Of a stretch of 64,000 nucleotides of DNA, positions 44,293 to 57,013 are shown one piece after another (position 1 is the first letter of the stretch; the number at the start of each line of letters is the position of its first letter). The translations under genes were made by a program, and so were the position numbers. The DNA is from Verrucomicrobiota bacterium. Its GTDB lineage: Bacteria; Verrucomicrobiota; Verrucomicrobiia; Verrucomicrobiales; Verrucomicrobiaceae. The stretch spans positions 77 through 64,076 of the forward strand of contig JAPLUN010000685.1 of assembly GCA_026397715.1 (NCBI GenBank). Reading direction: 5' to 3'. The notes beneath the pieces were generated by a model. That model saw nothing but the letters and a program-made list of their open reading frames with translations. It made no database searches and was not told the origin of the DNA.

Positions 44293-45747
44293 ATGCATCC
44301 TCTCGACGCCAATCGCCTCCACCTGACCCGCCGTTCCCTCTTTGGGAAAACGGCCATGGGAATTGGTGGTGCGGCGCTGGGCGGACTGCTGACACGAGAA
44401 GGTTTTGCAGCGCAGCAGCCGGATGCCTTGGCACCGGCGCTGCCGCATTTCGCGCCGAAGGCAAAACGGGTGATCTATCTGCTGCAAAACGGCGCGCCCT
44501 CGCATGTGGACCTGTTTGATTACAAACCGATGCTCAAGAAGATGCACGGCACTCAAATTCCGGACAGCATCGCAGCAGGCAAACGCTTCAGCACCATGAC
44601 GGGCGGCCAGACGGCGAGGCCGGTGCTTGGTGAGATCTCGAACTTTTCACGCCATGGCCGCAGCGGCGCAACGGTGAGCGACTTCCTGCCGCACACGGCG
44701 GCGATGGCGGACGAGCTTTGCTTCATCAAATCCCTGCACACCACGCAGGTGAATCATGCGCCGGCCATCACGTTTTTCATGACCGGCAGCGAACAGGCTG
44801 GCCGACCGGCGATTGGCTCATGGCTGAGCTACGGCCTCGGCAGTGATGCGGAGGACATGCCTGCCTTTGTGGTGATGACCTCGCGCGACAAGGAGGCGAG
44901 CTGCGGCCAGATCTTCTATGACTTCTACTGGGGCAGCGGCTTCCTCCCATCGAAGTATCAGGGTGTGAAATTTCGCGGCAGTGGCGATCCCGTTTTGTAT
45001 CTGAGCAATGCAGACGGCATGAGCCGTGAGGTGAAGCGCACCATTCTGGATGGCATTGCTGGATTCAACGAGATGAAGCTTCGTGAGTTTGGCGATCCTG
45101 AGATCGCCACGCGCATCGCGCAGTACGAGATGGCCTGCAAGATGCAGACGAGCGTGCCGGAGCTGACGGACTTCTCCGACGAGCCCAAGCACATCCTCGA
45201 CATGTACGGCCCGGACGTGATGCGGCAGGGCAGCTACGCCTACAACTGCCTCATGGCGCGTCGTCTCGCCGAGCGCGGCGTGCGCTTTGTTCAGCTGATG
45301 CACGCAGGCTGGGACCAGCACCGGAATCTGAACACGCAGCTCAAGATTCAATGCACCGACACCGATGCACCGAGTGCCGCACTGGTGAAGGACCTCAAGC
45401 AACGCGGCCTGCTGGAAGACACCCTGGTCATCTGGGGTGGCGAATTTGGCCGCACGCCCTTCCTCCAGGGTAAGATCGAGGACACCAAGCAGTGGGGCCG
45501 CGACCACCACCCCTACGTGTTCACCGTCTGGATGGCCGGTGGCGGCGTGAAGCCCGGCATGACCTACGGCGAGAGCGATGAATTCGGCTTCAACGTCGCG
45601 AAAGACGGTGTCCATGTGCACGATTTCCAGGCCACCCTGATGCACCTTCTCGGCATCGACCACGAACGCTTCACCTTCCGCTTCCAGGGCCGCCAGTTCC
45701 GCCTGACGGATGTGCATGGCAGCGTGGTCAAGCCGGTGCTGGCTTGA
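44293..45747 (+). CDS. DUF1501 domain protein (intact paralogue, Tat signal)
   Basis: LTRRSLFGK Tat motif and a full-length body, including the conserved C-terminus HDFQATLMHLLGIDHERF. Confidence 0.9.
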   Translation: MHPLDANRLHLTRRSLFGKTAMGIGGAALGGLLTREGFAAQQPDALAPALPHFAPKAKRVIYLLQNGAPSHVDLFDYKPMLKKMHGTQIPDSIAAGKRFSTMTGGQTARPVLGEISNFSRHGRSGATVSDFLPHTAAMADELCFIKSLHTTQVNHAPAITFFMTGSEQAGRPAIGSWLSYGLGSDAEDMPAFVVMTSRDKEASCGQIFYDFYWGSGFLPSKYQGVKFRGSGDPVLYLSNADGMSREVKRTILDGIAGFNEMKLREFGDPEIATRIAQYEMACKMQTSVPELTDFSDEPKHILDMYGPDVMRQGSYAYNCLMARRLAERGVRFVQLMHAGWDQHRNLNTQLKIQCTDTDAPSAALVKDLKQRGLLEDTLVIWGGEFGRTPFLQGKIEDTKQWGRDHHPYVFTVWMAGGGVKPGMTYGESDEFGFNVAKDGVHVHDFQATLMHLLGIDHERFTFRFQGRQFRLTDVHGSVVKPVLA

Positions 45748-45803
45748 GCGATGTCTCACATCCCGGTTGCATCCCGCTCCCGCCGAGTGTTTGAGTCGTT
45801 TCA

Positions 45804-46748
45804 ATGCCGATCCCCCGCTTCCTCCTTGCCCTCGCACTCTGCGTCTGCGTCGTGGCATGCAAACGTGAAGATGCGAAGCCTGCCGCGAAGCCGGATGCTG
45901 CGGCGTTTGTCGCCGACGGCGGTGGTGATGGCAGCGTGTGGGTGGTGGACGGGCCAAACGGAGGCCGCCTGTTCCTGTGCGGCACCATTCACATTTTACG
46001 CGAGAAAGACTACCCCTTGGCCCCGGCCTATGAGGCAGCGTACATGTATTCAAATAAGCTCGTCCTGGAACTGCCTCCGGGAGCGGCTTCAGGATCAGAA
46101 CTGACGAGCCGGATGTCGCAGCTCGGCCAGTATCCAGCAGACAAGTCGCTCGAGGCGAATGTGAACAAGGAAACTTGGGAGGCCGTGAAAACATGGGCCT
46201 CCAAACACGGCTTGAAGGATTCCTCATTGAACCGCTTCCGTCCGTGGTTCGTGGCCCTCATGATCACCTCCACTGAATATGCGGCTCTGGGCGCCAAGTC
46301 GGACCAGGGTGTAGACTCTTTCTTTGAGGAGCGGGCGAAGAAGGACGGCAAGCCTGCCGAAGGACTGGAGACGGTGGAGTTTCAACTCCAGCTCTTTGCC
46401 GCCCTCAGTGAAAAGCAGCAGCGTGAGCTCCTGGAGCAGACGCTGGGAGAGATCAGCTCCGTGAAAGAGGAGTTCGAAAAAATGATCAAGGCCTGGAAAT
46501 ACGGCCAGCTGGATGATCTGAAAGAGATGCTCTTTCGCGAGGCGGAGAAGTACCCCGACCTCATGAATCTTTTCCTCACCGCCCGCAATCTCTCCTGGAT
46601 GGACCGGCTGGAGCAGATGCTCAAACGTGGTGAGAAGGTGATGGTACTGGTGGGCACTGGGCATTTCACCTCAGACACCGGCCTGATCGAGCTCTTTCGA
46701 AAGCGTGGCTACCGCGTGCGGCATTACCGTGAAGTGACGGACTTCTGA
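45804..46748 (+). CDS. TraB/GumN-family protein, lipoprotein-like
   Basis: Leader ...LALALCVCVVAC. GTIHILREKDYPL motif and a C-terminal VLVGTGHF. Confidence 0.8.
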   Translation: MPIPRFLLALALCVCVVACKREDAKPAAKPDAAAFVADGGGDGSVWVVDGPNGGRLFLCGTIHILREKDYPLAPAYEAAYMYSNKLVLELPPGAASGSELTSRMSQLGQYPADKSLEANVNKETWEAVKTWASKHGLKDSSLNRFRPWFVALMITSTEYAALGAKSDQGVDSFFEERAKKDGKPAEGLETVEFQLQLFAALSEKQQRELLEQTLGEISSVKEEFEKMIKAWKYGQLDDLKEMLFREAEKYPDLMNLFLTARNLSWMDRLEQMLKRGEKVMVLVGTGHFTSDTGLIELFRKRGYRVRHYREVTDF

Positions 46749-47834: not shown

Positions 47835-48863
47835 ATGACCTCTGGCTCCACCGGTTCTCACCGCGCCTTCATGGGTGTTTGCATCACCCTGTGCGTCATC
47901 CTGTCGCTGACACTTTACGTAGGATGGAAATTCTATTTCTTCAATGTCGCCAATCGCAACAGCCTGATCGAAAAGGCCCAAAGCGCCGAGAAGAAAGCCC
48001 AGGATCTGGAAAAGCTGGGGATCTCCTTTGAGCCGGCCCATACCGCCCCCCCCACTACTTCGGTGCTGCCCAAACTCACGACCAGCAGTGAGACCGCCCC
48101 CCCAATCAAACCCACAGTTCCTTCAGCCACCTCCACTCTGGCATACTCCCCCAGTCAGAATGCTTCACTGCATCCTGCGGAATCCAGCATCAAGGAGCTG
48201 CCTCTGCTGGAGTCCAGTGATGAAGTGGTTCAGGCATTGCAGTTGCTGGACCAGTATTGGAAAACGGAGTCTTGGAAGGATCGCGTTCCGCTGGTGGCCC
48301 ATTCTGAGCGGGTCGCCACTTTGATGAAGGATTACTATGAAGTGCAGGGCGCCTCAGATCCCTCGCCAGGCGCGTTGGTCAGCAAGGCGCGTTATCAGAT
48401 CAATGGCACTGAAATTCTTTACCTGAGCTATGCCAGCAACCGGCCCACGGGCTCGTTGGAAATCGCCATGCTGCGGGGTCCGCAGGGGAAATTCCTGGTC
48501 GACTGGGAAAGCCTCACCGGATATGGCGAGATGTCTTTCCAGGAGTTGCGCACCAAACGCCCCACCAAGCCAGTGCTGATGCGGTCATATGTGCGCTTGT
48601 TTGAGTACTACAATTACGAGTTCTCCGACTCTAAAAAATACCTGTGCATCAAGCTGCTGTCAGAGAGCGGCGACAATTCGGTGTACGCTTATTGTGAACG
48701 TGGCACCCCGCTGGCGCAGTGGATGGAGAGAGACCTCGCCAGCACCGGGCCTACAGGCTTCAAAGGTTACACCATGCTGATATCCTTTCCTCCAGACGCC
48801 CAGTCAAACCAGTGCGTGATTCTGGACAAAGTCGTGACACAGCGCTGGCTCAGCCTGCCCTAA
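47835..48863 (+). CDS. Hypothetical single-pass membrane protein with Ser/Thr/Pro-rich linker
   Basis: 342-aa ORF: TM helix (GVCITLCVILSLTLYVGW), an STP-rich stretch, then a globular C-terminal domain. No family recognised. Confidence 0.55.
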   Translation: MTSGSTGSHRAFMGVCITLCVILSLTLYVGWKFYFFNVANRNSLIEKAQSAEKKAQDLEKLGISFEPAHTAPPTTSVLPKLTTSSETAPPIKPTVPSATSTLAYSPSQNASLHPAESSIKELPLLESSDEVVQALQLLDQYWKTESWKDRVPLVAHSERVATLMKDYYEVQGASDPSPGALVSKARYQINGTEILYLSYASNRPTGSLEIAMLRGPQGKFLVDWESLTGYGEMSFQELRTKRPTKPVLMRSYVRLFEYYNYEFSDSKKYLCIKLLSESGDNSVYAYCERGTPLAQWMERDLASTGPTGFKGYTMLISFPPDAQSNQCVILDKVVTQRWLSLP

Positions 48864-48917: not shown

Positions 48918-49151
48918 TTATTCGCCGTCGCGACCGATCGCTTCCACCGGGCAGCCGGTAAGAGCTTCTTCACAAAGTGCGCGCTCCTCATCCGATTCAG
49001 GCTGCTTGTAGAGGAACGAATGACCGCCATCGTCGTCACGCTTGAAGTTTGCAGGAGCCGTTTCGCGGCAGAGGTCGCAGTCAATGCACTGGTCATCAAC
49101 GTAGTAAGCTCCGGAAGCGTTTTGGGCGTATTTGTTTGCAGCGTCAGCCAT
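48918..49151 (-). CDS. Small ferredoxin (single [4Fe-4S]/[3Fe-4S]-type)
   Basis: 77 aa. YYVDDQCIDCDLCRETAP ... CPVEAI cluster-binding pattern. Confidence 0.8.
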   Translation of the reverse strand: MADAANKYAQNASGAYYVDDQCIDCDLCRETAPANFKRDDDGGHSFLYKQPESDEERALCEEALTGCPVEAIGRDGE

Positions 49152-49322
49152 GGGGGTCAGGGAAAGTAAGGGGCATTGATAGTAGTTCCCACCCCCGGGG
49201 TTTCAAACGGTTTTTTGCCTGCCCGCCCCCTCCCCGCTCCCCCTTTGACAGAGTCTTTACAATAAAAGCTCGCTTCAGCCGTGATGCTCGCCGCATCATT
49301 CACCCCAATCCGCTTTCCAGCC

Positions 49323-52300
49323 ATGAAATCGCTCGTCCTCGCCCTCTTGCTGCCTCTCACGGCCCTTGCCGAAAATGAAATCGGCTTCATCGAGCGCTTC
49401 GCCCTCGCTGCCGACCGCGAAAAAGCCCTCGGCGAGCTCGTTCCCGGCTCGGAGGAATACTATTTCTTCCACGCTCTCCATTACCAAAACGTCCGCGACA
49501 GCGCCAGACTCAATCAAATCCTCAATCAGTGGCGTGAACGCGTCCCTGACGAAAACGAAGCACGCCGCATCATCCTCAATCGAGAGGCCATCCTGGATTA
49601 TGAACGCGATCCCCAGGCCACGCTGAAATATCTCATCGAGCGCCTGGGCATTCGTCACGACCACCAGCAGGAGGTTCGTGATCAAAAGCCAAACCTCCCC
49701 ACGCAGCTTGATCCCACCAAAATCAGCCGTGAAATCTTCCTCCTCGATACACTGAAACATGATGGCGGATTTGAAACACTCTCTCAGGACGCTCTCGCCT
49801 CCCTCATTCGTGATCAGGTACAGCTCTCGGCTTTTCAACGCCGCAGCGTGCTCAGCAAGCTCGAACGCCCCGATGTGCCCAATCTCGTGCAGGCCATCAT
49901 TGCCGACCTTCAGGCGGACAAATCACGCACCTTCGGCTCTTTGCCCATTCATCGCGCCCTGCTGCCGGAGCAGCTGGATTCACTGCTGCAAACCTTCCCT
50001 CAGTGGCTCAGCCAGCAGGCTTTTGTTTACGCCCGCCTGCGCAAGCTGGCCCCCAGTGCGGATGTGAACCTGGAATACGACGACGCTGAGCGCGCCGCCT
50101 GGCTCGACCGCGTGTGGGCCTTCGCACAAAACCTGCCGCCCTCCCAAAACACCCTCAAGGCCCGCATCCTCTACCTCCGCCTGGACCATGACCGCAAGCA
50201 CGGCGTGTATGACCGCGCCCGCTTCATTGAATACCTCAAGCTCCCGCGCCAGCAGGACTACATCAACTACACCTACATCAAAGACGTCATCCCCGGCGAA
50301 CTCTCAGACCTCAACGCCGACCTCAGCGAGCCATTGCTGCTTTCCCTGCCCCTCAGCACGGACGAGCCGCTCGTCCGCGAGTACTTCCTCCACCTCTTTG
50401 CTGCCGAGGTGAAGCCCGATTCCGATCCCAACGACGTCCTCGCGCAATGGACCACGTACATAGCCGAAGAATGGCTCACCCCTGTCCTGGCAGAGGCGCT
50501 TATCACCCACCGCATCGGCTCCCCGGAGCATTGGGCCTCGCTGATCACACCCACCCAATTCCAGCAGCTCAAGGACCGTGTCGACATCGAGTTTCCCGCC
50601 ACGAATACACCCCAGTTCTCACCCGGCGATGACATCCAGTTCGACGTCACCGTCAAAAACACACCAAAGCTCATCGTGAAGATCTTTGAGCTGAACACGC
50701 TCAATTTCTTTCAGACCCAGCAGCGCCAGCTCAATACCGATCTCAATCTCGACGGCCTCGTGGCCAACAGCGAGCAGACCCACGCTTTCGAGGGCGGCCC
50801 GTTCGCACGCACGCGGCAGACTTTCAAATTCCCCGAGCTCAAAGGCAAACGCGGCGCATGGATCATCGAGTTCATCGGCGGCGGCCGCAGCAGCCGCGCC
50901 CTCATTCGCACCGGTCAGTTCCACGTTCTGCAGCAAACCGGCCCCAGCGGCGATCTCATCCTCGTCCTCGATGAAAAGCACCAGCCCGTGAACGATGCCG
51001 TGGCGTGGTTTGAAGGCCGCAAACTGACGCGCGATGAAAAAATCGGACGCATCGTCATTCCGTTCACGAATCAACCCGGCACGAAGAATCTTGTCATTGG
51101 GGATGCCGGGGGCAGCTTCGCCACCCTCACATCCTTCACCCATCATGCTGAGGACTACCGCCTCGATGCCCAGTTCCACATCGAACGCGAGCAGCTTCTA
51201 GCCCGCCGCGAAGCCACCCTGGCAGTGCGCACTGCATTGATGATTGGAGAGGTGCACCTCGCCCCGGAATTCCTCACCGAACCGAAGCTCACCATCACCA
51301 GCACCACGCTGGATGGCATCTCCACCACTCGCGAAGTCAAAGACCTCAAGCTCAGCGCCGGCAGCGACCTCACGCACACGCTCACCGTCCCCGAACGCCT
51401 CGCCTCACTCACCGTGGCCTTCACTGCCAAGGTGGATGTTGTCAGCGCCGGAGGGACGAAAAAAGACCTCACCGCCAGCCACACCTGGACGCTCAACGGC
51501 ATCGATAAAACGGAAGCCGTCAACGACGGCCACCTCAGCACCTTTGATGGCCAGCGTGTCTTCGAACTCCTCGGCAAAAACGGCGAACCCATCGCCGATC
51601 AACAGGTCATTTTCACGTTCAAGCACCAAGACTTCAATCGTCCCCAGGTCATCCCGATGCGCACCGATGCCCGAGGCCGCGTGAACCTCGGCAAACTCAC
51701 CAGCATCGAATCCGTCGCCGCCAAAATCCCCAATGGCCGTCAGACACTCTGGCCGCAGCTCGATGCTGAGGACACGCTCTCCACCACCATTCACGCCAAG
51801 GAAGGCGAAACCATTCGCGTCCCCATTCATGATACCGGCAGTCTTCCGGCCTCACTCCTTGCTCAGACATCCGGCACCTTCACCGCAGACCTTGCAGCAC
51901 TCCTCAAAACGGAAAACGGTTTCCTCACCATCAGCGGTCTCACACCAGGCGATTACTCACTGAAAATCCCCGACCAGCCGCTGATCACACTCAAGGTCAC
52001 TCAAGGCGAAACCCTCGGCGGCTGGGTGCTTGGCAAGCACCGCCAGCTTGAACTCAAAGGCAACACACCGCTGCACATCCTCAGCATCGAAAACGGCCAG
52101 GAATTCATCACCGTCAAACTCTCCAACAGCAGTCCCTTCGCACGCGTTCATTTTGCTGCATCGCGCTTCGATCCCGGCAGCGGCATCTTCGGCGGCCTCG
52201 CTGGTTTCACTCGATTCGGCGCCGCCTCTGGCACTCCCGCTAGAAACCCAAATCTCTACTCCGCTGGCCGTGAGATCGGCGATGAGTACCGCTACATCCT

Positions 52301-55300
52301 CGAACGCCGCTACGCCAAGCTCTTCCCTGGCAACATGCTCACCCGCCCCGGCCTGCTGCTGAATCCTTGGGAGATCCGCAGCACCGACCTCGACGAACTC
52401 GCTCAGCTCGGAGGCCAGTCCGCTGCCATGACTCGCGGAGGTGCCGCTGGCGTTGCCAACGATGCCGATAAAATGGCAGCGAAGAAAATGAAAGCCCAAA
52501 GCGGGCCGCAAGGCGGCACCAATCTCGACTTCCTCGATTCATCCTCACCGGTCATCTATAATCTTGTGCCCGACAAAGACGGCGTCGTCCGCATCGAACG
52601 CAAAGCCCTCGGCGACCGCCAGCACGTCCAGATTTACGCCGAAGACCTGCAAAACGCCTCCTGGCGCACGCTCACGCTGCCAGAGGCTCCCACCAAGTTC
52701 GCCGATCAACGCCTCGCACGAAATCTTGATCCCAAGACACCCTTCACGCAGAAAAAAGAAATCACTGTGCTCGAAACCGGCAAGGCCCTCACCCTCGCCG
52801 ACATCCTCACCAGCGAACTCGAAACCTACGACACAATCGGTGGCATCCACTCGCTGTTCACCACGCTCAGCCATGACGGCCATCTGGCCGAATTCGCTTG
52901 GCTGCTGAACTGGCCCAAGCTCAATGAAGATGAGAAGCGCGCCAAATACGGTGAGTTCGCCTGCCATGAACTGAACTTCTTCCTCTTCCGCAAAGACAAG
53001 CCTTTCTTCGATGCCGTGGCGAAACCCTATCTCGCCAACAAGAAGGACAAGACCTTCATGGATGAGTACCTCCTCGACCTCGATCTCGCCCCATATCTGG
53101 AACCCTGGGCCTACGCCCGCCTCAACATCGTCGAGCGCATCCTGCTCGCTCAGCGCATTAAAAACGAAGCTCCGAATGCCGCACGTCATGTCCGCGAGCT
53201 ATGGGAGATGATTCCACCGAATCCTGAACAGCAAGATTACCTCTTTGAAACGTCACTGCGCGGTCGGGCGATGGAATTTTCAGACGCGGCGGCCAGCGGG
53301 GACCTGGAAAAAGCAAAAACACAAGCTGCACTTGCAGCTCCACCCCCACCACCGATGTCGCCGATGCCAGCAGCGGCGGCAGCTCCTGCAGATGCTTTTG
53401 CCGCGCCGTCACCAGCAATGGGATCTGGAAATCTCGGCAATAGCAGCGAAGCCAAGCCTGGAAACCGCAGAAACGACCGCTCCCTGACCGCCGTCGAACT
53501 CCAACGGCTACCTGCGATGAAAAACGCCGCTCTCGACATGCCCAAGGAAATGGCTGCCCTCGGCCAAGAACGACAAGAAGCGCTGCGTAAATCAGGAGCA
53601 GGTGGCTGGGCATTGAGCGGTGCCAACACCTACACAGGCGCAACCACCATCAATGCGGGAACACTCCTCTATTTCGACGCTGGATCTGTCAAAGATTCGC
53701 AGCAGCAGGTTCGCATCTTCTTCCGCGCCCTAGGTCCCACCAAAGAATGGGCGGAGAACAACTACTACAAGCTGCACATCACAGACCAGACCGCCGACCT
53801 CGTCACCGTGAACGCCTTCTGGCGCGATTATGCTGCCTGGGTGGCCGCTGGGTCCAAGGGCGGCTTTGTCTCTTCCAACGTCGCCGAGGCCAGCCGCAAT
53901 TTCACCGAGATGATGCTCGCGCTCGCCGTGCTTGACCTTCCCTTTGAGGCTCCCAAGCACAGCACTAAGGCTGACAATGGAAAGTTCACTTTCACCGCAG
54001 GCGGCCCCTGCATCGTGTATCACAAAGAGATCAAGCCCGCCGTTGTCGAAAACAACGCACAAGGCCAGCTCCTCGTCTCCCAAAGCTTCTTCCGCCAGAG
54101 CGACCGCTACCGCATGGAGGGGAATGAGAAGTTCGAAAAATACGTCACCACCGAATTCCTCGCCGGTGCGACGTATGGCGCAAACATCGTCGTCACCAAT
54201 CCCACCAGCAGCCCGGTGAAGGCCGTGGTTCTGCTGCAGATCCCGCAGGGCGCATTGCCTGTGCTCGGCAGCAAGGCCACCGACTCTCGCCAGATTCGGC
54301 TGGAGCCTTACACCACGCAGACGTTCGAGTATCACTTCTACTTCCCTCTCGTGCCCGCCAAGGCAGGCCTCAAGTTCGCGCACTTCCCTGTCAACGTCGC
54401 CACCAGCACCAGCACGGCAGGCGCAAAACCGTTTGAGTTCAATGTCGTGCCGAAACTCACCGAGGTAGACAAAGCTTCGTGGGACTATGTCTCGCAATAC
54501 GGCAGTGATGCGGAAGTCTTCACCTTCCTTGAGCAAAACAATCTCGAAAGCCTCGACATGGAGCGCATCGCCTGGCGTTGCCGTCAGAGTGGAGACTTCT
54601 ACAAGAAGCTCATCGATTTTATGCGCCAGCATCACTTCTATGATGCCGACATCTACAGCTATGCTTTTCTCCACAATGATCCCATCGCTTTGCGGGAATG
54701 GCTGAAGCTTTATGGCTTCGCAGATCAATGCGGTCCGTATTTCATCAGCAAGCTCCTTACCCTCGACCCCATCGAACGCCGCAGCTACGAGCAGCTCGAA
54801 TACTCCCCGCTCGTCAATCAGCGCGCCCACCGCGTCGGCAACGAGTGGCGCATCGCCAATCCAGCAGTGCTGGAGCAGTACACCAAGTTCCTCGACATCC
54901 TCGCTCACAAGCCGCAGCTCGATGCCATGGACAACCTGAGTGTAGCCTACTTCCTCTTCCTGCAAGACCGCGTGGAAGAGGCTCTGGCACGCTTCAAGTC
55001 CATCGACGCCGCCAAGCTTCCCACCAAGATCCAGCACGACTACTTCCAGTGCTACGCCGCCTTCTATGAAGGCGATCTCGCCGCCGCACGCGGCCTCGCC
55101 GCAAAGTATGCCGATCATCCCGTGCCACGCTGGAAGCTGCTCTTTGCAGATGTGGCCACTCAGCTTGAAGAAATCGAAGGCAAGACCGCAAAGACCGAAA
55201 AAGGCGACAAGCCCGATCGCGAAAAACAGCAGGCCGAACTCGCCGCCACCGAGCCCGGCTTTGACTTCAAAGTCGAAAACAAGACCATCGCCCTCACCTG

Positions 55301-55904
55301 GAAAAACCTCGGAGAAGTCACGCTGAACTACTACCTCATGGACCCCGAGTTCAGCTTCAGCAGCAATCCCTTTGTAAGTCAGGATGCCGGACGCTTCAGC
55401 ATCATCAAGCCGAACAAAACATCCACACAAGCGTTGCCGAAGGATCAAACCACGCTCGATCTGGCGCTGCCCGCCGAATTCGCCAAGGCGAACGTGCTCG
55501 TCGAAGTCCTCGGAGCAGGACTGCGCAAGACCCAGGCCTACCATGCCAACACCTTGAAGCTCACACTCTCCGAAAACTACGGCCGCCTCGAAACTCGCGA
55601 CTCCACCACCGACAAACCGCTGCCCAAGGCCTACGTCAAAGTGTACGCACGCCTGAACAACGGCACCGTGCGCTTCTTCAAGGACGGCTACACTGACCTG
55701 CGCGGCCGCTTTGACTACGCCAGCCTCAACGGCCCCGAAAATGCATCACCACAACCGACGCCCTATGAAGCCCCACCCGCCAACGGCCTCGACTACCAGA
55801 TGCTCAAGCCTGCCGAGCTGAGCAATGTCGAAAAAATCGCCATCCTGATCCTCAGCGACACCCACGGCGCAACGGTGAAGGAAGTGAACCCACCCGGGAG
55901 GTAG
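49323..55904 (+). CDS. Giant secreted protein of unknown function (2,193 aa)
   Basis: Uninterrupted ORF with native codon usage. Signal peptide [16 protein letters not shown] from the ATG at 49323. Repeated beta-sandwich-like modules, a P/A-rich linker with one PATR-like repeat (53595-53672), and a carboxypeptidase-regulatory-like C-terminal module. Confidence 0.85.
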
Positions 55905-55924: not shown

Positions 55925-55952
55925 TGCGCCTTTTTCGAGCGTGAAGAAGGCG
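55925..55952 (+). promoter_or_regulatory. Intercistronic stem-loop between the giant gene and the MBL hydrolase gene
   Basis: GCGCCTTTTTC (55925-35) pairs with GAAGAAGGCGC (55942-52): 11 bp with one G-U and a 6-nt loop. No U-tract follows. Confidence 0.4.
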
Positions 55953-55963
55953 CTTCACCCATC

Positions 55964-57013
55964 ATGAAATCCATCCTCGCCGCCCTGCTTGCCTGTACCC
56001 TCACTCTTTCCGCGCGTGACAAAACGCTCGACATCTACTGGATCGACTCCGAAGGCGGCGGCTCGACCCTGCTCGTGACGCCAGCGGGTGAGTCGGTGCT
56101 CATCGACACCGGCAATCCCGGTGGACGCGATCCGCAGCGCATCAAGAAAGTCGCAACGGAACAGGCGAAGCTCACGCGCATTGATCACGTCATCATCACG
56201 CACTTTCATGCCGATCACTTCGGCGGTCTGGCTGAACTGGCGGAACTGATGCCGGTCGGCACACTCTACGACAAAGGCATCCCCGATGGCAGTCCAGACG
56301 GCAAGGCCCAGGACATGCGCTGGACGCTGACAAGCCGCCCGTATCGCGATGCCAAGGTGGAAAAGCGCGTCACACTGTCGGCAGGTGCCGTCGTGCCACT
56401 CAAGCAAGCGGAAGGCAGCCCAAAGCTCACGCTCCGCTGCCTGGGCGCAAATCAGCAGTTCATCCCGCCCTATCCCGACCAGCCCGAAAACCCGCTCAAG
56501 GGTTCAGTTCCACCCAAAGCAGCCGACCCAACTGACAACGCCAACAGCGTGGTGATGCTGCTGCAATTCGGCAACTTCCGCTTCTTTGATGGCGGCGATC
56601 TGTCATGGAATGTCGAAGAAAAACTCGTCTCTCCATTCAATCTCGTCGGCACCGTCGATCTATATCAAGTAAACCATCACGGCCTGGATGTGAGCAACAA
56701 CCCCATGCTCATTCACAGCCTCCAGCCCACAGTTTCGGTCATGAACAACGGCCCCCGCAAGGGCACCAGCAAGTCCGCCATGGACGCCCTCAAATCGACC
56801 CCGACGATCCAGGCCATGTATCAGGTGCATGAGAACGTCCGCGACGATCATGAGAACACAGCGGACAAGACCATGATCGCCAACCATGGAGATCTGGCCG
56901 AAGGCTGCGCCGCAGAGCACATTCACTGCACCGTCAGTGCCGATGGGAAAAGCTACAGCGTTGAGGTGCCTTCACAGAAACACAGCCGCACTTTCCAAAC
57001 GCGCGAAAAATAG
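55964..57013 (+). CDS. MBL-fold metallo-hydrolase, secreted
   Basis: Signal peptide [31 protein letters not shown] (HxHxDH) and a later VNHHG. Confidence 0.85.

Follow-up and report, generated by a model that had tools for sequence, protein, structure and literature searches.

CAGE proteins have recently been described as a family of large polypeptides, approximately 2,200 residues in length, represented by CAGE1 of Tetrahymena (2,216 residues; CAGE1-3 correspond to I7MLD7, I7M9Z0 and I7MGF4) and AbpF of Dictyostelium (XP_635154.1). Cryo-electron microscopy at 5.6 and 3.3 A (PDB entries 11KS and 11KT) revealed homotetrameric hollow shells of D2 symmetry and about 1 MDa, measuring 22 x 16 x 12 nm and enclosing a cavity of about 600 nm3. 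CAGE1 comprises 15 domains having no Pfam or SCOP match: domains 1-2 are helical (residues 1-443), domains 3-8 are beta-sandwiches, and the helical domain 11 is assembled from two segments (1244-1414 plus 1519-1559), after which helical domains 13-14 are flanked by the beta domains 12 and 15. Alpha-2-macroglobulin (A2M) was the top Foldseek match of domains 4 and 6, and domains 4-6 are given in Table S1 of that study as YfaS_2nd, A2M_N_2 and MG4. Retrieval by BLASTP at E <= 1e-5 yielded 3,521 homologues, more than two thirds of them bacterial and chiefly from Planctomycetota and Verrucomicrobiota; most bacterial proteins carry a signal peptide (assigned with DeepTMHMM), eukaryotic ones generally do not, and AlphaFold3 models of bacterial representatives retain the concave fold. 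The function is described as unknown, with speculation that macromolecules are contained, held or trapped by the complex (McCafferty et al., bioRxiv 10.1101/2025.09.22.677704). Here we describe a gene encoding a protein of 2,193 residues and 243 kDa in a stretch of DNA from a member of the Verrucomicrobiaceae (64,000 nucleotides of contig JAPLUN010000685.1, assembly GCA_026397715.1, hereafter the window), and identify its product, by sequence relationship, as a member of this already known family.

An exact-sequence look-up matched the product, with 100% identity and coverage, to NCBI entry MCX6853103.1 (P0001 in our collection of homologues). Table S2 of the preprint gives this accession as a homologue of AbpF (XP_635154.1), having a score of 488/939, 88% cover, an E-value of 2e-135, 27.55% identity and a length of 2193, and it is this entry that places the window protein in the CAGE family; the homology statistic is the authors' own, checked here by accession look-up alone. 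Two other homologues that we retrieved, MBN8418471.1 and WP_165199975.1, likewise appear in that table. The attributes expected of the family are also evident. The length falls within the range of about 1,900-2,400 residues and the modelled order of domains, including the non-contiguous ones, conforms to that published; the central beta domains are predicted to be macroglobulin (MG)-like while escaping detection by Pfam at the sequence level, the exception being a single lineage-specific PATR repeat; and the N-terminus carries a predicted secretion signal, as in bacterial members. With Tetrahymena CAGE1-3 and AbpF the window protein thus shares its size of about 2,200 residues, domain order, MG-like central folds and lack of catalytic motifs. 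It differs from the eukaryotic proteins, which are generally devoid of signal peptides, in having one for the Sec pathway, and bacterial members carry within a helical bundle a lineage-variable insert, represented here by PATR and in orthologues by STN, secretin-N-like or TPR modules. Assembly into a cage was shown for two eukaryotic proteins alone, and the eukaryotic partners (actin, Asf1 and intraflagellar transport proteins) are not expected in the bacterium of the window.

A prior reading of the window from sequence alone (the sequence-only reading) had found no assignable family for this protein and had proposed it as a candidate for undescribed biology. Pfam and NCBIfam indeed offer no family-level assignment, but the near-full-length match to AbpF, of a kind which that reading had itself named as decisive against its proposal, assigns the protein to a family already described and structurally characterized. 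As an aside on the published distribution, two entries of Table S2 attributed to different phyla, MFT5240214.1 (Kiritimatiellia) and MFT7489337.1 (Chloroflexota), have identical values (824/1029, 29.42%, 2,109 residues). They are probably the same protein binned into two metagenome-assembled genomes (MAGs), and some odd phyla in the reported range may in part reflect such binning artefacts.

To compare architectures we used AlphaFold2 (AF2) models of two halves, cut at residue 1065 and built from 78-sequence alignments. The N-terminal half (residues 17-1065) attained a predicted local distance difference test (pLDDT) score of 79.6 and a predicted template modelling (pTM) score of 0.73, and the C-terminal half (1066-2193) scores of 64 and 0.37. 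Domain order in these models tracks the 15-domain CAGE1 map almost one to one, at an offset of 20-40 residues (regions and CAGE1 equivalents are collected in Table 1). The N-terminal region is occupied by about 24 helices, for the most part at pLDDT 80-96, and is interrupted by a low-confidence break at residues 111-119, close to where CAGE1 domain 1 gives way to domain 2 in the published map; strands of the ensuing beta-sandwiches cover residues 421-934. The region that follows (941-1171) is beta-rich, includes among its motifs one of 13 residues and LLLNPWE, and is probably built from non-contiguous segments, to judge from the models. Confidence is low on both sides of the cut at residue 1065, since the published domain 8 of CAGE1 consists of residues 963-1021 plus 1151-1195; the cut leaves residues 945-1135 outside the usable models. 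Eleven helices (pLDDT 75-93), with the invariant motifs ACHELNFF and NKKDKTFMD, occupy residues 1172-1320 in a bundle modelled from residues 1172-1338 plus 1498-1536, the intervening sequence (about 1339-1492) being disordered. Short helices beyond this gap are equivalent to the second part of domain 11 in CAGE1 and are accompanied by beta-sandwich units (1547-1707, of which 1618-1707 are the beta stretch used in the comparison of maps) equivalent to domains 10 and 12. Helices at 1718-1976 make up the next region, which gave faint matches to TPR_SusR (PF28559) and a SusR model of NCBIfam at residues 1864-1917 and no sequence match in PDB. The C-terminal pair of beta-sandwiches, with strands at 1979-2131 completed by strands 2169-2188, is the block of highest conservation (0.85) and carries an 18-residue motif resembling CarboxypepD_reg. 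The four-part layout proposed in the sequence-only reading overlooked the very conserved section of about 380 residues (941-1320) that separates the beta-sandwiches from the linker. The loose pattern it had perceived among the beta modules, from four peptides that map to residues 549, 751, 779 and 2104, finds no support as a sequence repeat: when 11 beta-rich segments were compared all against all by hhalign, no probability exceeded 5.6% and no repeat was detected.

That reading had also likened these modules to macroglobulin-type domains and had named a Foldseek search of structure models as a suitable check. The search bore out the resemblance at the level of fold. The N-terminal-half model returned 99 PDB matches at E <= 1e-3, and the best 50 of these were without exception MG arrays, belonging to C3, C4, C5, cobra venom factor (CVF), CD109, A2ML1, A2M or TEP1. 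The alignments spanned 600-670 columns with E-values down to 4.7e-10, with TM-scores of just 0.10-0.16 and a root-mean-square deviation (rmsd) of about 22 A; the TM-scores indicate that, in the models, the type of domain is shared and its packing is not. For the C-terminal-half model the best PDB folds were fragments of Escherichia coli A2M (MG0-NIE-MG1; E 3e-5, TM 0.39-0.49, the part of the model covered being unspecified), and the model could also be aligned collinearly, though weakly, with the alpha' chain of C3b and with an A2M from a megavirus. A viral fold library contributed generic Ig, Big_1 and FN3 matches and no others. At the sequence level, searches of PDB with the single sequence, a whole-length profile and three domain profiles found no match in copies that lack 11KS and 11KT, the PADLOC models of anti-phage defence did not match the window protein, and bMG3, MG4 and CarboxypepD_reg appeared below threshold in single family members (bMG3 at E 0.002 in one of 22).

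Homologues are numerous and concentrated in two phyla. A first homology search gave more than 856 matches, the best 120 being full-length proteins of Verrucomicrobiaceae with 62-100% identity. In a scan using one genome per species, the gene was recorded in at least 521 genomes of Verrucomicrobiota and Planctomycetota, with both halves of the protein always together, and an exhaustive HMMER search with a profile of residues 975-2095 retrieved 4,160 clusters (50% identity) at E <= 1e-3 and 1,581 at E <= 1e-30. Among the best 150 clusters most sequences are 2,050-2,250 residues long, shorter entries having the appearance of fragments. Starting from a distant representative, one arrives at proteins of Phycisphaerae, Thermoguttaceae and Pirellulales, in which named entries are always "hypothetical protein". 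The taxonomic spread sought by the sequence-only reading is thus centred on Planctomycetota and Verrucomicrobiota. Its concern that the ORF might be a misassembled concatenation did not materialize, and we reject misassembly or gene fusion given the invariable joining of the halves in full-length orthologues of two phyla. Comparison with two orthologues gave ratios of nonsynonymous to synonymous substitution (dN/dS) of 0.03-0.125 for every folded region, the lowest in the protein (0.034-0.036) occurring at residues 941-1020. The window protein is under purifying selection along its whole length.

Several observations on individual carriers may be added. A Chthoniobacter sp. MAG (JAXDQW010000030.1; L039:130-20481) contains three head-to-tail CAGE-family genes encoding 2,170, 2,232 and 2,389 residues, and in MAG La5_metabat2.013 the gene is present twice, once on contig L024 and once on contig L047; tandem bacterial copies recall the three paralogues of Tetrahymena. 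Two MAGs labelled "Akkermansia muciniphila" (L004 and L017) carry a Prosthecobacter-type gene with 72-80% identity, surrounded in L004 by the whole Prosthecobacter-type gene order, and their organism names are probably wrong.

An open frame extends without interruption from 49281 to 55904 (+), with the ATG at 49323 as the biological start; orthologues use the same start Met, which together with the full-length homologues upholds the single uninterrupted ORF of 2,193 residues noted previously. The signal peptide, also noted previously and predicted here from sequence, has counterparts in similar N-termini throughout the family. Immediately after the predicted cleavage site, the sequence (E/G)(N/E)EIG(F/Y)(I/V)E.FAL (window 49371-49400) is kept across Verrucomicrobiota and Planctomycetota. 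This family-conserved stretch, beginning ENEIGF in the window protein, suggests that the newly exposed N-terminus is itself structurally or functionally important. A regular-expression scan confirmed that HExxH, GxSxG, P-loop and CxEQ motifs do not occur, and found no lipobox; beyond the signal peptide there is no hydrophobic segment, and the protein contains five Cys residues. Composition within the gene is distinctive: between 50001 and 56000 GC skew is strongly negative (-0.17 to -0.24) and AT skew about +0.145, as against roughly +/-0.1 in the remainder of the window. This coding-strand asymmetry generates long antisense shadow ORFs, for example one of 604 residues at 53730-55544 (-).

By analogy with the eukaryotic structures, we consider it highly probable that this protein is an exported bacterial CAGE subunit that forms a homotetrameric hollow cage in the periplasm. 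After export, four copies would assemble as a D2-symmetric shell of about 1 MDa, with the published dimensions of 22 x 16 x 12 nm and a cavity of about 600 nm3. The shell would reside in the periplasm, a location presumed because the protein has no lipobox, no barrel and no recognizable surface-sorting signal. The MG-like beta-sandwiches together with the helical domains would build the cage wall, the assembly could serve as a non-catalytic container or holdase for macromolecules, and a linker lying inside the helical bundle may provide a lineage-specific element for docking or contact with cargo. Several considerations weigh against this proposal. The periplasmic location is a default assumption. 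The tetramer is extrapolated across approximately 27% identity, and purification or imaging of a CAGE complex has yet to be achieved for any bacterium. The two-half modelling cut at residue 1065 split a non-contiguous domain, and the C-terminal half reached a pTM of just 0.37. Moreover, the figure for homology to AbpF was taken from the authors' table and is not our own alignment, and the source describing CAGE is a preprint that precedes peer review.

The linker is the most variable part of the protein. The sequence-only reading had recognized it as Pro/Ala-rich with one PATR-like repeat, and the repeat is confirmed by both Pfam and NCBIfam. Its majority-residue fraction is 0.21-0.32, with many gaps, as opposed to 0.55-0.85 elsewhere, and its dN/dS is 0.24-0.34. 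It is a hot spot for insertion of modules that differ by lineage, at a site falling between the two segments of the helical bundle equivalent to domain 11. An STN domain is added there in P0007, P0052 and loci L025, L043 and L052; P0110-P0114 and P0266 have STN accompanied by a secretin-N-like module; P0196 has a TPR; and others have a coiled-coil or nothing. The content varies even among orthologues at the same syntenic locus, where PATR is confined to the window protein. A clear instance is seen in orthologues at the ferredoxin-CAGE-MBL locus (L025, L043, L052 and P0007), which are about 95% identical elsewhere and differ by a clean indel of about 80 residues corresponding to STN in the linker.

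These features lend themselves to the best surviving alternative, namely that the protein is a CAGE homologue by descent that forms no closed tetramer in bacteria and acts in the periplasm as a scaffold or tether, either as a monomer or in some other assembly, with two large lobes joined by a Pro-rich, TonB-like spacer whose STN, secretin-N-like or PATR inserts dock to machines of the outer membrane. The linker, about 150 residues long, Pro/Ala-rich and disordered, suits such a spacer; the modules gained and lost by orthologues at one locus (STN, secretin-N-like and TPR) are typical of protein-protein interaction in the periplasm; and eukaryotic CAGE proteins, having no signal peptides, operate in another cellular context. 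Nevertheless, the bacterial AlphaFold3 models of the preprint keep the concave fold (bioRxiv 10.1101/2025.09.22.677704), the wall-forming domains are all conserved with dN/dS of about 0.1, as expected if packing between subunits is retained, and no conserved partner gene lies nearby. We judge the scaffold arrangement improbable. The linker with its lineage-specific modules is the best candidate for an element that binds partners or cargo. A more specific idea, that cargo is drawn into the cage by the insert, or that the insert docks the cage on outer-membrane secretins or TonB-dependent transporters, is offered tentatively and as a rather doubtful prospect; if true, it would give a first concrete handle on CAGE, as a periplasmic container tied to envelope transport in the Planctomycetes-Verrucomicrobia-Chlamydiae (PVC) bacteria.

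A second alternative makes the window protein a genuine, very divergent member of the A2M/complement family, operating as a periplasmic protease trap devoid of thioester and using the linker as a bait region. Bacterial A2M proteins (YfhM/ECAM and the thioester-less YfaS/MagD) and the eukaryotic C3, C5, A2M, CD109 and TEP1 are likewise large and exported, contain runs of MG domains, and have a flexible, variable segment between their halves, as does the window protein. Human A2M is moreover a tetrameric cage, and a role as molecular container is either established or proposed for both A2M and CAGE. The arrays aligned by Foldseek are of MG1-MG6 type (E down to 5e-10), the C-terminal half finds its best matches in E. 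coli A2M with weak collinearity to complement and megavirus proteins, and the disordered hypervariable segment sits roughly where a bait region would. Against this, the window protein has no sequence homology to A2M: none of the A2M-family models (A2M, MG2, BRD, bMG3/5/6/10 and TED) matched it, isolated sub-threshold bMG3 or MG4 matches arising in one of 22 members, while relatives of YfhM used as a positive control (near-identical enterobacterial sequences) possess 11 Pfam domains of A2M type; when the family profile was compared with E. coli YfhM by hhalign, the probability was 0.2%. CxEQ is missing, a thioester domain (TED) is not demonstrated, and the C-terminal helical domain gives merely faint matches of TPR type. 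The low TM-scores and large rmsd indicate different packing; a helical N-terminus of 400 residues and further helical domains are additional to the A2M plan; there is no lipid anchor; and no pbpC gene neighbours the window gene or those of the compared loci. As for a bait region, the 150-residue disordered segment, with the dN/dS cited above, is under relaxed and not positive selection and harbours folded modules in orthologues. The CAGE preprint, too, regards A2M as a resemblance of fold at the level of domains alone (bioRxiv 10.1101/2025.09.22.677704). We reject true A2M membership as very improbable.

The remaining suggestion, that the protein is an autotransporter-type passenger or surface adhesin, derives from the database name "autotransporter-associated beta strand repeat" (NCBI and JGI), of which the PATR repeat is the sole source; the repeat is significant, is the only Pfam match in the window protein, is shared in kind with PATR passengers (PF12951/TIGR02601), and is accompanied by large size and an export signal, but it is a lone unit of 28 residues and not a beta-helix array, it lies in a disordered hypervariable linker and recurs in just two of 22 diverse members and one of 120 planctomycete homologues, no translocator barrel was matched and the C-terminus is a beta-sandwich, and neither length nor architecture varies from phylum to phylum, in contrast to adhesins that expand by repeats, so that we dismiss this reading as having next to no likelihood.

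Identification of the window protein as a CAGE homologue therefore corrects an annotation founded on PATR. It concerns a newly recognized megadalton cage whose known carriers are eukaryotic microbes and bacteria, the latter mostly Planctomycetota and Verrucomicrobiota. To the published description we add the site of insertion, region-by-region selection figures, the finding that no neighbouring genes are conserved, and tandem paralogues. The wall-forming sequence is strongly constrained in its entirety, and the gene stands alone, with no partner genes from which to borrow a function. Culturable carriers of the gene include Prosthecobacter fluviatilis KACC 12649, Chthoniobacter flavus Ellin428 and Roseimicrobium sp. 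ORNL1, from which a CAGE particle of bacterial origin, with whatever it contains, might be isolated.

Table 1. Coordinates of the CAGE-family gene, the regions of its product and the adjoining features (window positions)
Feature	Residues	Position	Strand	Equivalence and basis
CAGE-family coding sequence, complete	2,193 plus stop	49323..55904	+	ORF list, translation, exact look-up
Sec signal peptide (predicted)	1-16	49323..49370	+	Predicted cut before ENE; n-region, h-region, AxA
All-helical N-terminal region	17-420	49371..50582	+	CAGE1 domains 1-2; AF2
Five to six MG-like beta-sandwiches	421-940	50583..52142	+	CAGE1 domains 3-7; AF2, Foldseek
Most conserved part	941-1171	52143..52835	+	CAGE1 domains 8-10; conservation profile, dN/dS
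Low-complexity loop	1021-1065	52383..52517	+	Interrupts residues 941-1171
Helical bundle	1172-1320	52836..53282	+	First segment of CAGE1 domain 11; AF2, invariant columns
Pro/Ala-rich, mostly disordered hypervariable linker	1321-1470	53283..53732	+	pLDDT below 50; conservation, dN/dS
Single PATR repeat	1421-1448	53583..53666	+	PF12951 E 1.3e-9; TIGR02601 E 2e-10
Conserved 10-residue motif, short helices, two beta-sandwich units	1471-1712	53733..54458	+	AF2, invariant columns
Helical TPR-like region	1713-1978	54459..55256	+	CAGE1 domains 13-14; AF2 helices (1718-1976)
C-terminal beta-sandwich pair	1979-2193	55257..55901	+	CAGE1 domain 15; AF2 strands
Ferredoxin, divergent	77	48918-49151	-	Fer4_13/15 matches
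Hairpin, 11-bp stem		55926..55953	+	dG -28.4 kcal/mol, z -3.1, no U tract
MBL-fold gene, signal peptide		55964-57013	+	Lactamase_B

The immediate flanks are as the sequence-only reading had described them, with a divergent ferredoxin gene upstream and a strong hairpin and an MBL-fold gene downstream, export of the MBL product being predicted. The hairpin, between the stop codon and the MBL gene, may act as a terminator or stabilizer. That reading had further asked if these neighbours are conserved beside homologues. When ten neighbours from the window were compared by tblastn with 79 loci, ferredoxin lay beside the gene in 11 and MBL in eight, so that neither is a family-wide associate; all such loci show the Prosthecobacter-type gene order. 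Clustering 749 flanking ORFs against one another disclosed no partner common to the whole family, and three planctomycete contexts, labelled by Pfam, have no gene in common, the CAGE gene there looking monocistronic. The ferredoxin and MBL neighbours are conserved just in close relatives and carry no functional signal.

Other features of the flanks may be recorded. The MBL-fold protein has a weak match to the anti-Pycsar Apyc1 family (PF23023). A 342-residue ORF with no Pfam match (47835-48863, +) is syntenic with the ferredoxin and CAGE genes in 14 loci of Verrucomicrobiaceae type, and not beyond these. Farther upstream, gene calls in a close relative place a gene for a DUF1501 protein at 44293-45747 (+) and one for a member of the TraB/GumN family at 45804-46748 (+), and the ORFs at 44818-46227 (-) and 46224-46664 (-) are shadow ORFs.

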